Shown here: positions 5,285 through 55,289 of the stretch, piece after piece
Numbering within the stretch: position 1 is the first letter of the stretch
Layout of the letters: the number at the start of each line of letters is the position of its first letter
Assembly (NCBI GenBank): GCA_020054235.1
Contig: JAGVLQ010000025.1
Coordinates: 922 to 64,921 of the forward strand
Length of the DNA stretch: 64,000 nt
DNA from: Candidatus Babeliales bacterium
Lineage (GTDB): Bacteria > Babelota > Babeliae > Babelales > JACPOV01
Direction of reading: 5' to 3'
Position numbers and translations under genes: made by a program
Notes under the pieces: model-generated
What the model was told of the DNA's origin: nothing
What the model saw: only the letters and a program-made list of their open reading frames with translations
The model's database searches: none

Positions 5285-7620
5285 CAAGGTCCTTCTGAAA
5301 ATGAATACTTCCGATTTTTTAGCCAATTTTTAAACGCTTCAGGAATAGGTTTTTTTGATGCAAATTCAAATGTTTTATTTTTTGCAGTTGCTATTTCAAC
5401 CTGTGATGGAACTTTAGAACGACAATCACCAATTTTTTTATCATTCCATTCCATATTTTTACATTCAATAATTTTTTCGGCTGTTTCTATGTCTATATCT
5501 CTTTTGGGTTTGCCCGGCAATTGTACCTTCTCTCCAAACCTTATAACTTTTGAATTTTTTGATTCTCTCAAAGCAACTTCAACTTCGTATATTGCCCCAT
5601 TTACTGTCGACTGATGCGGGATATCTACAACACATTCCAGTAAAATTTTACTAACAGGGCCATCTTTATCTAAAAACCCTTCTACATCCTTAAATTTTTC
5701 TAGTGCTTCGATAATTATGTCTATTACTTCTTTACTAATACCCTTGGCTATGCCTTCTTTTAAAAACTCAATAACTTTTTCGCCATGGGTATCTACATCA
5801 ATATACGGTTGACCATTAACTCCTATAACCTCTGCCAACCTTTTTTTTGCTCTTTCTACATCCTCTTCTCGTCTTTGGCTCTCTTCACTTTTTTGAGGTC
5901 GCCATTTCTGTTTTTCAGGCTCAGCTGGCTTTTCTTCCGGCACATCAGGCGCTGGTTTATTTTTTTCTTGCTCTTGCGCATTTTCACTCAGTAAAGCACC
6001 CTGTATTTGCGTACCATAATTACAGCCTTGCTTCTGCTCCTGTTCTTGCGTTACTTCACAAGCTGGTGGCGTAGGAATTTCTTGTCCACCTTGTATGCAA
6101 ACGCCCTTTTGTTCAAATTCTTCAACGTCAACTATGCATTGCCCTTTTGGCACTTCAGGTTCTTTAATCAAACCGGTGCCACAGGGACGGTTTTTTTGTT
6201 CTTCTGCAATTTTTTGTCGCTCTTGGGCCCGCACTGATAAATAGTAATTAAAAAACGGTATGCCGTCTGGCACATTTTTTATTTCTTTTTTTGCTTGCTC
6301 AGAAAGCTCAGCCCACGCAGGGTCGCTTGCAAGTTCACGCCGGATACCATACGCATCAAACTTTTGGTTATAAAAATACGCAAAAATTTCATCTGCTACA
6401 GCGCTCTTTGCATCTCTTGCAATTCTGTTGGCTGTCTGAAAATTCTGCGCAAGGCAGCTTTCTATCACGGCCATTATTTTTTGGTTAGTAGCGTTATCGA
6501 TAACTTTGCTCGTTAGATGTGTCCATAAAAAATCACGGGCGACGTAAAATGCACGATACAAGGCATTAACTGTCTTATACCACCCTTGCTCATCAGCCAT
6601 ATCAAGTAACAAAGCAAACTCGTCAAGATCTAAATATTTGCCTAACTCCTCTCGCCATGCATCCCCATATTCTTGACGAAAATATTCAACAATCGGTCGC
6701 AAAGCTTTTACGGTAGAAATGGGCTCATTGGAAATCGCTCCTGTTCCATGATCAAAAAATAATGGTGCAAGCCAATACCGAATCTGATAAAGCCCACGAT
6801 TAAATTGCGCTGGTGCCCGTGTTGCAAAAAAAGTTTTAAGGGCACAGATTTTTCCTAGTGTAGCTGACTTGGCCACTGCATTTATAAGCGTGCGCATTTC
6901 CTCTTTGCACTGGCGGTCAATATCAACACGAAACTCTGGGTCATGGTCATAACGGTACTGCAAACGATGCTCGAGCAGTTCTTGCTCGGTTGCTCGGCGG
7001 TCAGGAAATGAATTTTTAAAACCTACTTGCGCGTAGACACGATGATTGCCAAGATTACATTCAGCCCGCGCAAAGCCTGGTCCGTTAATTATCTTGATTG
7101 TTTGCGGATTCGAAAATGCTGAAGCATCTAAGTAAACATCGGCAATGAGCGCAACGCCAGCTTCAAAAGGATTAGGAATTTCCACCTGTGCAACCTTTTT
7201 TTGTTCCGGTGTAAGTGGCGCACCAAGCTGTTGTTGCATAGATTGTTCAACTAAATCAGGAATACTAAAATTTTTGAAGGTATATGTTTCTGGTTGAGCT
7301 TGCGGTCTGCTTGCGCTGGGGGGGGTTACACTATGTTGTGCTGGATCATTTGGCATTGCTTGCACAGCAGAAATTTGCACGCAAGGCTTAGTTTCTTGGT
7401 TATGGACAGCTGGCTGGTAATGCCATTTTTCAATCTGCTTTTTTGCAACATATGCTGCAGCACCTGCAAACGCTAAAGCGGCTTGAGCACTCAAAACTAC
7501 TTGCTGCATAACCGGCGCTGCAACCGCCATTGATTCAATTTTGCGCTGAGATATAAAATCATTGAATAAAAATGCTATAAGAAAAACTAAAAAAAATCGC
7601 TTATGCTTTCTAAACTTCAT
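5284..7620 (-). CDS. large secreted multidomain protein with C-terminal PD-(D/E)xK nuclease-like module (candidate toxin/effector)
   Basis: The ATG at 7620 gives MKFRKHKRFFLVFLIAFLF; the track start 7644 is TTG. The central domain is shared with 1794..2714. A Cys-containing and PEK-rich linker follows. The C-terminus reads GAIYEVEVAL..VIRFGEKV..KRDIDIETAEKIIECKN, which places E, D and E-x-K in the canonical order. The coding call is strong; the nuclease call is moderate. Confidence 0.55.
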   Translation of the reverse strand: MKFRKHKRFFLVFLIAFLFNDFISQRKIESMAVAAPVMQQVVLSAQAALAFAGAAAYVAKKQIEKWHYQPAVHNQETKPCVQISAVQAMPNDPAQHSVTPPSASRPQAQPETYTFKNFSIPDLVEQSMQQQLGAPLTPEQKKVAQVEIPNPFEAGVALIADVYLDASAFSNPQTIKIINGPGFARAECNLGNHRVYAQVGFKNSFPDRRATEQELLEHRLQYRYDHDPEFRVDIDRQCKEEMRTLINAVAKSATLGKICALKTFFATRAPAQFNRGLYQIRYWLAPLFFDHGTGAISNEPISTVKALRPIVEYFRQEYGDAWREELGKYLDLDEFALLLDMADEQGWYKTVNALYRAFYVARDFLWTHLTSKVIDNATNQKIMAVIESCLAQNFQTANRIARDAKSAVADEIFAYFYNQKFDAYGIRRELASDPAWAELSEQAKKEIKNVPDGIPFFNYYLSVRAQERQKIAEEQKNRPCGTGLIKEPEVPKGQCIVDVEEFEQKGVCIQGGQEIPTPPACEVTQEQEQKQGCNYGTQIQGALLSENAQEQEKNKPAPDVPEEKPAEPEKQKWRPQKSEESQRREEDVERAKKRLAEVIGVNGQPYIDVDTHGEKVIEFLKEGIAKGISKEVIDIIIEALEKFKDVEGFLDKDGPVSKILLECVVDIPHQSTVNGAIYEVEVALRESKNSKVIRFGEKVQLPGKPKRDIDIETAEKIIECKNMEWNDKKIGDCRSKVPSQVEIATAKNKTFEFASKKPIPEAFKNWLKNRKYSFSEGP

Positions 7621-19572: not shown

Positions 19573-20150
19573 ACCTCACGGCCCTATGCGGGCAGCACTA
19601 GATGTTTTGCTTGCCCAAAACATCTAGGACTAAAAGGGCACATAAGAGAAGGTTCTCTTATGTATCTCTCTACGCTCGTAACTCGGCCCTAATTTTAATA
19701 AAATTGAGGGCCTCAAACAGTGACGAGCTAATAATGTTAAAATTTCCTATTTATTCATTTCTTTATTCGGTAGCGCTCGAATAGTTCGCTATCGCTCATC
19801 TCTCGCAGAATTAAATTAATTTTTTTTCGTAGAAAAAATAATTTTGACTCGCGATTCTTCGACGAGCTCAGAATGAGCGGAATACATACCTTTTTCGCTT
19901 GCCCGCCATAGCTTTAGCGACGGCTGGGAGCGCTTCAAAATAAAAAAAATGACTAAATAAGATGTTTTTAACTTTTTTAGCTCGCCCTGTATGAGCGTTC
20001 TCAATTTTTTCTAAAAAAAAAATTAGAATGCGAGTTCGAGCGTACGGCAATCCAACAGCATGTTGGTGTATTTTTTGTCCAGCATTTTTTGTACAAGCAA
20101 AAAATACTGGTGCTGTGCGCAGAGCACCGAGAGATTTTAAAATGAAGTAA
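19573..20150 (+). repeat. copy 1 of a hairpin-rich noncoding repeat of about 0.55 kb (candidate structured RNA or nonautonomous element)
   Basis: Aligns end to end with 54717..55255 in the same orientation, except for an inverted central module. Multiple conserved or covarying hairpins. The track ORFs inside are not conserved between copies. The strand of any transcript is unknown. Confidence 0.8.
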
Positions 20151-23504: not shown

Positions 23505-24074
23505 CTAAAATGGCAGCACACCTAATTTTTGTAATAACCAATAAGCACTAAAGCCTCCAACAAAGGTCATAGTATATTTCAGTAGTGGTGAATTGCCGAA
23601 TCCGTTATATTTATTTAAGCTGGTTGGTTTATTTTCAGTCGATTCTTCACTTGCTTTGCTCATCTGTCTTAATTGTTTTCTTGACTCAGTCGATTCGCAC
23701 ATCTGTCTTAATCGTTTTCTTAAGTTTGTCAGTTGTACAGAATCAAAGCTTAGTAATGCAGCACCTTCTTGTGCAGGAATAGGACTAATTGCTGTAACAT
23801 TTTCTAGAAATGCACAGAACGCACCGACAAATTGTTGCTCCTTTTGACGTGGTGTCAAATTTCCTGTAATCGTAGGTATATTTAATGCACGATGTTGGCC
23901 AAGTACGTCTAATCCTTCATGAGCTTTTTGATTTATTTTGAGTACATTCAGTAGCATTGATGGTTTTTTTTGTTCTGTTTGTTGATTTTCAATTTCTTGC
24001 AACTGATTTTCATCCATTGCCCACAAGGCGCCTGAACTGAGCGTAAGTAAACTTAATAAGAAAAGTTTTTTCAT
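23505..24074 (-). CDS. hypothetical secreted protein with C-terminal hydrophobic anchor
   Basis: Signal-like N-terminus and a C-terminal hydrophobic segment. Contains an internal approximately 15-aa duplication, RKRLRQMCESTES / RKQLRQMSKASEES. Confidence 0.6.
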   Translation of the reverse strand: MKKLFLLSLLTLSSGALWAMDENQLQEIENQQTEQKKPSMLLNVLKINQKAHEGLDVLGQHRALNIPTITGNLTPRQKEQQFVGAFCAFLENVTAISPIPAQEGAALLSFDSVQLTNLRKRLRQMCESTESRKQLRQMSKASEESTENKPTSLNKYNGFGNSPLLKYTMTFVGGFSAYWLLQKLGVLPF

Positions 24075-54582: not shown

Positions 54583-54716
54583 AAAAAAACCTTTCAGGCT
54601 ATTCTTTTAGTTTAGCCACAATGGGTTCTTACTTCAATAATACAAATTTATTATCTTTAATTTTCTATTTTTTTAATTCAAACATTTTTATACAAATGAG
54701 ATTAATCAAAGCATTT

Positions 54717-55255
54717 TCTCTCACGCTCCTCATGCCGGTGAGGCACAAAGGTATTGCCTGCCCAATACCTTTGATACAAGGGCACATAAGAGAAGAATCT
54801 CTTATGTAACTCTCTGCGCTCGTAACTCGGCCCTAATTTTAATAAAATTGAGGGCCTCAAACAGTGACGAGCTAATATGGCTTTAAACATCTTAGTTATT
54901 CATTCTTTTATTCGGTAGCGCTCGAATGGGAAGTTTTTCTTGCGAAAAACTTTGCTCTCGCGAGTCCAAATTATTTTTTTCTACGAAAAAAAATTAATAA
55001 ATATCGCGAGAGACAAGCGTAGCGAGCTATTCGAGCGCTTCAAAATAAAAAAAATGGTTAAATAAGACATTTTAACCTAATTAGCTTATCTGTATGAGAC
55101 TCTGAATTTTTACTGGTAAAAATTAGAGGCGAGTTATAAGCGTACGGCAGTCCAGCAACATGCTGGTGTCTTTTTTATCCAATATTTTTTAGACAAGTAA
55201 AAAATATTGGTGCCGTGCGCAGAGCACCGTGAGATAAAATAATTAAAATGAATGT
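54717..55255 (+). repeat. copy 2 of the hairpin-rich noncoding repeat of about 0.55 kb
   Basis: Aligns with 19573..20150. The central module 54928-55028 is bounded by the perfect 11-bp inverted repeat agcgctcgaat / attcgagcgct and is inverted relative to copy 1. Confidence 0.8.
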
Positions 55256-55289
55256 ACGTTTTTAAAAAAATTTAACTTAAAAACTTTCT

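Follow-up and report, generated by a model that had tools for sequence, protein, structure and literature searches.

Opposite orientations at the centre of a nested palindromic repeat in a Candidatus Babeliales genome: probable historical inversion between the repeat's own arms

The systems closest to a DNA segment that is found in both directions between inverted repeats fall into four groups. The invertons are phase-variable invertible switches, such as fimS of E. coli, hin of Salmonella and the capsule promoters of Bacteroides. The mosaic palindromic repeats and MITEs include the REP/BIME repeats of enterobacteria, the Correia elements of Neisseria, ERIC and the Rickettsia palindromic elements. 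In the parvoviruses the flip and flop forms of the terminal hairpins arise by hairpin transfer at the ends of the linear genome, in the course of rolling-hairpin replication. Finally, there are the small inversions that belong to hairpins themselves, where template switching within an imperfect inverted repeat leaves, as its signature, homogenisation of the arms together with inversion of the spacer (PMC8604942; also PMC8794818, PMC5453318), and where minute inversions associated with hairpins are a classic feature of the non-coding DNA of plastids (Kelchner & Wendel 1996; Kim & Lee 2005, cited in PMC7393888).

To which of these does a repeat belong whose centre points one way in one copy and the other way in the next? 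The repeat in question occurs twice in the window, by which is meant the whole 64,000-nucleotide stretch that was analysed, and which is part of contig 15 of a draft genome of 1.25 Mb, 35% GC and 29 contigs. Copy 1 lies at 19574-20136, between convergent genes, and copy 2 at 54717-55236, likewise intergenic; both are supported by their folds, copy 2 by a module map in addition, and no strand is assigned to either of them or to the features within them. Full copies are nested quasi-palindromes of about 520 nt with the modules A B C D E F E' D' C' B' A'. As single-stranded DNA, copy 2 folds into one branched hairpin of -121.3 kcal/mol (z = -13.4), and the corresponding fold of copy 1 has -122.3 kcal/mol (z = -10.9). 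The left inner arm of copy 2 (54813-54927) consists of modules D and E in the variant called V1 and the right inner arm (55029-55145) of modules E' and D' in the variant V2, the two being 72% complementary; in the copies C6a and C4 it is across the centre, on the opposite side, that the V1 variant is found. The left arm terminates in the sequence agcgctcgaat (54917-54927), which is the region of the inversion breakpoint, and the right arm starts with attcgagcgct (55029-55039), such that this perfect 11-bp inverted repeat forms the inner end of the E/E' stem, by which the central module F (54928-55028) is closed. Module F is itself asymmetric, with a first hairpin, F1 (54928-54954), a long, AT-rich second hairpin with a 9-bp GC clamp, F2 (54955-55012), and a tail of 16 nt, F3 (55013-55028). 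The apex loop, ctacg (54981-54985), is the symmetry centre of the whole element.

The repeat has no credible open reading frame, and a comparison with the Rfam RNA families gave none at threshold, the best E value being about 0.1 and the scores well below gathering scores; with no known RNA family reaching threshold, the reading of the repeat as an RNA gene was rejected. Terminator-like hairpins are also present, in the outer modules C' and A', and their T-runs lie on opposite strands, at 55152-55176 (+) and 55228-55199 (-) in copy 2 and at 20052-20076 (+) and 20128-20099 (-) in copy 1, and, as the hairpins lie just downstream of gene ends, the repeat may supply terminators to the flanking genes. 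Other repetition within the window includes two direct repeats, one of 300 nt and one of 156 nt, at 1864-2447 and 6221-6804 (71-74% identity, 4357 nt apart), which are presumably paralogous coding sequence, and a 39-nt unit that is tandemly duplicated with 79% identity at 23647-23724.

The preliminary description of this DNA had reported the 11-bp repeat around the copy-2 module, the same left arm in copy 1 followed by the module in the opposite direction, and flanks that are collinear in the forward direction on both sides, and all of these stand, with exact coordinates for the repeat and for the copy-1 arm (agcgctcgaat, 19772-19782). The flanks are represented by 19631-19733 and 54775-54877, which are 95% identical in the forward orientation. 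Between them, the copy-1 segment 19783-19854, which reads as the reverse complement of F3 and then of F2, agrees with the reverse complement of 54958-55028 in 64 of the 74 columns of a global alignment (86%), a closer match than the roughly 80 percent estimated by eye at the outset. Aligned forward, the same two segments agree in 40 of 79 columns (51%), against a mean of 53% and a maximum of 64% for mononucleotide shuffles. A reverse-complement match of this strength, with a forward match at the level of shuffled sequence and collinear flanks, means that the inverted centre is real, and the earlier claim that the module has inverted at least once is upheld by it, as a change relative to the flanks at some point in the family's history, the breakpoints lying inside the 11-bp repeat. 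The module is partly self-complementary (46/88), but its orientation is nevertheless unambiguous, since three features give its direction: the apex loop, which is cgtag in one copy and ctacg in the other, the inequality of the inner arms, and the tail F3.

Copy 1 does not, however, mirror copy 2 cleanly. At its far junction 74 nt of other sequence (19855-19928) stand in place of F1 and of the right repeat's first 5 nt, and of this repeat only the remnant agcgct (19929-19934) is left. The arms are consequently 146 nt apart in copy 1 as against 101 nt in copy 2, which bears out the 45 extra nucleotides and the shortened right arm that had been described. The last 28 nt of the copy-1-specific segment, 19901-19928, are a small separate hairpin unit, gcccgccatagctttagcgacggctggg, which recurs in the genome near 3097-3129 of contig C23 and near 9006-9044 of contig C24.

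How much weight can an 11-bp repeat bear? Perfect 11-bp inverted repeats with arms 20-200 nt apart number 17 in the window, where a first-order Markov model leads one to expect 12.8, and among GC-rich ones there is 1 where 0.3 are expected; such pairs as a whole are thus not rare in this AT-rich DNA, but GC-rich ones are. That the repeat is significant by itself was rejected, comparable AT-rich pairs being present in the window at chance frequency. The repeat is meaningful rather because it is one stem of a far larger palindrome, and because the 11-mer agcgctcgaat, which has 7 exact matches in the genome, has all of them inside copies of the element.

These copies belong to a family of about ten loci in the genome, all of them intergenic, of which eight carry the centre: copies 1 and 2, C24:8495-8960, C18:69004-69458, C6:1-461 (C6a), C6:9166-9689 (C6b), C5:28972-29260 and C4:1-446. 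Contigs C19 and C20 provide the missing ends of the copies C6a and C4. Beyond this genome the outer modules A-B-C are present in 8 of 61 related genomes, while a search of 261 genomes of the order for the inner D-E-F-E'-D' block, with two candidates scored per genome, matched the genome itself alone. Searched as patterns in public metagenome contigs, the F2 and D hairpins had 0 matches each, a 16-mer from module D found only chance matches, in unrelated phyla, among the contigs of other genomes, and exact look-ups of four flanking proteins led to a single other contig, of 1006 nt, which ends where the repeat begins. Copy 2 is flanked by a membrane-protein gene and by plsC, 707 nt from one another here, whereas their homologues in a relative of the same genus, G001, are separated by 24 nt, from which it follows that copy 2 fills a site that is empty in that relative. 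The comparison of 54583-55289 with the G001 locus L163:1474-1497 places the element together with about 190 nt of other sequence in the insertion, and the insertion site looks like an operon.

The family is also host to other small sequences. In three of the five elements of G001 a hairpin of about 30 nt sits inside the D loop, and in another a larger foreign repeat sits in the E region. The small hairpin unit of 19901-19928 (ccgccatagc...gcgacggctgg, with a related form cccaggcttcgc...gctacgccggg) recurs at the G001 loci L130, L137, L142 and L147 as well, and it is nested in other hairpins of the family, in G001 including the loop of module D. A different repeat family (…gatacttcgatcaactcagtagtaaacgct…) lies beside or inside elements at C5:28850-28970, C12:87560-87660 and L147:1270-1400. 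At C6:9260-9450 and C4:150-340, both approximate, an unrelated segment of about 190 nt stands where the element's left half, with C, D, E, F1 and some of F2, would otherwise be.

With eight centres available, each module of copy 2 was scored in both orientations against every copy, and whole arms were then compared both ways. Orientation proves to differ at three nested levels, namely the 5-nt apex loop, the 101-nt centre and an inner block of about 330 nt, and every flipped piece is bounded by a short stem, with a GCGCTCG core in both of the larger stems. As an element-specific site GCGCTCG was rejected, since it occurs 70 times genome-wide. At the first level, that of the centre relative to its arms, the V1 arm adjoins F1 in copy 2 and C24 and adjoins F3 in copy 1, C6a and C4; the reverse complement of V2 adjoins F1 in C6a (82%) and C5 (96%), against 69-71% for the alternative. 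With C6b and C18 included, the arrangement of centre to arm is split 4:4 among the eight copies, so that the orientation of the module in the other copies follows no single direction and both arrangements stand on independent contigs. The comparison of C6a with copy 2 is a cleaner case than that of copy 1, as the exchange is exact at both 11-bp repeats and both junctions are intact, where copy 1 against copy 2 has one. At the second level the whole D to D' block of C6a and C4 is reversed relative to the outer C/C' modules, with breakpoints inside a 13-14-bp stem, cgctcgtaactcg / cgagttacgagcg. At the third, the apex loop is cgtag in C18 and ctacg in C6b, and the right halves of F2 in these two copies match from the loop onward. 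Measured against the outer frame, the centre has the same direction in all copies but copy 1, which is the very contrast that the preliminary description had picked up.

Orientation is not independent of descent. The centres fall into two sequence types, type II in copy 1, C6a and C5 and type I in copy 2, C24, C6b, C18 and C4; type II centres all have one arrangement and type I centres the other in four cases of five, the exception being C4, although the association of type with orientation is a weak one on so small a number of copies (n = 8, Fisher one-sided p about 0.07). As the two types are about 93% identical, the inversion of the centre is not recent. For about 107 nt or more the right arms of C4 and C6a do not differ at all, and for this reason that of C4 was probably acquired from a C6a-like copy. 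C4 and C6b have the same 190-nt replacement of the left half and a type I centre, yet unlike types of right arm, and a shared left replacement with differing right arms is a pattern that inversion cannot produce. C5 couples an arm 96% identical to that of copy 2 with a centre identical to that of copy 1 at 67 of 67 positions. On the strength of the C4/C6b and C5 combinations, the family is to be seen as a recombining mosaic. A further kind of change is seen in C24, which has a perfect 20-bp repeat, ttattcggtagcgctcgaat / attcgagcgctaccgaataa, that in copy 2 is broken by a 4-nt patch: cggt/accg in C24 stands against cggt/tcaa at the same positions of copy 2, a single example of the homogenisation of one arm with the other.

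What process could turn the same repeat over at three depths? The module is best regarded as the asymmetric apex of a mosaic hairpin repeat that behaves as a mobile element, and its opposite orientations probably go back to historical inversion mediated by the inverted arms of the repeat itself. The arms would pair with one another during replication or the repair of a break, and the spacer between them would then be copied or rejoined in reverse, either by a replication template switch within the hairpin or by repair after SbcCD has cut the hairpin. The same process could have acted at all three levels, at the T/A stem that encloses the 5-nt loop, at the 11-bp stem agcgctcgaat and at the 13-14-bp stem cgctcgtaactcg, and could have homogenised the 4-nt patch in one arm, with later exchange between copies spreading and reshuffling the variants. 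Since the orientation of the centre tracks its sequence type, one old inversion per level together with exchange between copies suffices to account for the pattern, and we infer that the flips are rare evolutionary events and not an operating switch.

The details of the breakpoints agree with this account of arm-mediated inversion: spacers are inverted between stem-forming repeats, the breakpoints are inside those repeats, and several stems are involved that have no site in common. Both RecA and SbcD are encoded in the genome, so that cleavage and repair of a hairpin are open to the cell. The perfect identity between the arms extends to only 11-20 bp, which is short of the usual minimum for RecA-mediated exchange, and on account of that short identity template switching is favoured over break repair initiated by SbcCD. 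Inverted spacers, several stems, a homogenised patch and no associated enzyme gene amount to the published template-switch signature, which is likewise that of the minute inversions of plastids, and the type of event is long known from plastid and yeast DNA, the repeat family itself being apparently undescribed.

Modular assembly is the alternative that fares best, and it is possible though rather doubtful. Here there would be no inversion in place; instead hairpin units would insert in either orientation and be moved on by gene conversion or crossing-over, so that the centre of copy 1 would have arrived, or been replaced, the other way round. Insertion or exchange of modules in either direction can indeed also yield the pattern seen among the copies, and the ingredients are at hand in the nested insertions of the family (the D-loop hairpins in G001), in the extra units at the centre of copy 1 and in the inter-copy exchange that is evident from C4 and C6b and from C5, where a copy-2-like arm is joined to the centre of copy 1. 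Module F has, however, no terminal inverted repeats of its own and no solo copies outside the element in a search of the genome, and an empty counterpart, in which E is joined directly to E', is absent from the genome. The flip of the 5-nt loop in C18 cannot be an insertion, and the junctions lie exactly in the stems, as events mediated by the arms predict. Moreover, the first copy to have the opposite orientation would still require a step resembling an inversion.

A programmed inverton, in which a trans-acting site-specific recombinase flips the centre reversibly at the GCGCTCG-containing repeats and so alters the output of the element, is quite improbable. In its favour are the perfect inverted repeat around the segment, which is more conserved than other parts of the arms, the equal division of the arrangements among the copies, the core common to both larger breakpoint stems, which could in principle be a recognition site, and the presence in the genome of four large serine and two tyrosine recombinases. 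Yet the window was already said to show no invertase gene, and this extends further, as there is no recombinase gene on the window's contig or beside any copy, all recombinase genes being on other contigs or far from any copy, and the 11-mer is found nowhere near them.

The four serine recombinases (C6:21469-22962, C14:56787-58244, C5:62424-63989 and C17:102240-103697) are paralogues of 485-521 aa with 70-89% DNA identity and an integrase architecture of Resolvase, Recombinase and Zn-ribbon domains. Integrases of integrative elements typically abut tRNA genes, and three of the four genes adjoin a tRNA gene at its 3' end or overlap it there (tRNA-Glu, tRNA-Arg and tRNA-Asp); from this position the loci look like small tRNA-targeting integrative elements. 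Three of the loci also have a conserved gene of about 385 aa, without a family, 1.5 kb upstream, which is inverted in the C17 copy. The two tyrosine recombinases, of 300 and 315 aa, look like the usual XerC/XerD pair by their length and Phage_integrase match alone. Neither a small Hin-type invertase nor a Y1/IS200-RAYT transposase was found in the genome, and inspection by eye recognised no target-site duplication at the ends of the element. The search for serine and tyrosine recombinases elsewhere in the genome, which the preliminary description had proposed, leads to large integrases and a Xer-like pair, all distant from the copies.

Promoter prediction speaks the same way. No sigma-70-like site was found on either strand of 54928-55028 or 19783-19928, and the counts were no higher than in shuffled sequence, although the test, being based on a consensus, is a weak one. 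The flips themselves are at three different stems with unlike sequences, one of them pure T/A, and a 5-nt loop is too small to be bracketed by recombinase sites. A fast switch does not predict that orientation tracks sequence lineage, but rare old events do. Six of the eight copies assemble straight through the centre, and a shared repeat accounts for the two contig breaks, which are not at the repeat around the centre: a segment common to two loci, and identical there over at least 99 nt, makes a two-in, two-out junction, for which reason heterogeneity of orientation was rejected as their cause. The inverton-type switch that the preliminary description had entertained is accordingly the part of it that finds no support, for want of a Hin-type invertase and a promoter-like site in the module, and in view of an inverted repeat that is the base of one stem in a far larger palindrome, of three flipped stems and of an orientation that goes with lineage.

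It is very improbable that an unrecognised structure-specific activity, for which one of the four large serine recombinases or a hairpin nuclease acting at the GCGCTCG stems would be a candidate, still flips the apex and the inner block at each locus; the non-coding repeat would then be a 'hairpin shufflon', carried by a protist-associated bacterium whose genome is reduced. That an assembler merely chose the wrong orientation for the centre of one copy is hardly credible, since, for all that the draft is in 29 contigs and four contig ends lie inside the repeat family, the overlaps of contig ends show assembly words of up to 99 nt, and words that cross the junction fix the orientation, the perfect repeat being of 11 bp (20 bp at most) and the arms beyond the core only about 70% alike, and both arrangements recur on several independent contigs.

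Arm-mediated inversion, if it is the right account, makes the repeat a clean bacterial example of a long quasi-palindromic repeat that remodels itself, with the contents of three nested stems flipped and the variants reshuffled, and a natural record of mutagenesis by template switching or hairpin repair. It adds to the description of a repeat family that is apparently undescribed and that belongs to a small, host-associated genome. It is also a caution for pipelines that look for invertons, in which repeat-flanked segments within palindromic repeats get called candidate switches. To a new regulatory mechanism it does not at present point.

How, then, does the locus stand beside the systems described at the outset? 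With the parvovirus terminal hairpins it shares an asymmetric hairpin tip that occurs in two orientations at roughly equal frequency, but there is no sign here of a linear or single-stranded replicating intermediate. With the invertons it shares short inverted repeats around a segment of about 100-150 bp and the occurrence of both orientations, which here are at different loci; it differs in that it has no promoter or coding payload and no adjacent or Hin-type invertase, and in that its flips are at several unrelated stems. The resemblance to the mosaic palindromic repeats and MITEs is broader, as these too are multi-copy, intergenic, non-coding and hairpin-forming, with modules in varied combinations and orientations, outer hairpins that are terminator-like and an insertion that is missing from the corresponding site of a related genome, whereas the present repeat is far longer, is nested and not tandem, has inner modules found in this genome alone, and is accompanied by no RAYT/IS200-type transposase found in the genome and no recognised target-site duplication. 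As for the small inversions of hairpins and quasi-palindromes, whether from template switching or as the minute inversions of plastids, the spacers here are larger (101-146 nt and about 330 nt, besides the 5-nt loop), the events are stacked within a single multi-copy element of 520 nt in a bacterium of small genome, and the route is inferred; the points in common are that the inverted piece is exactly the spacer between short stem-forming repeats, that the breakpoints are inside the repeat, that an arm has been homogenised, that no enzyme gene is associated and that the events are nested and prone to homoplasy.
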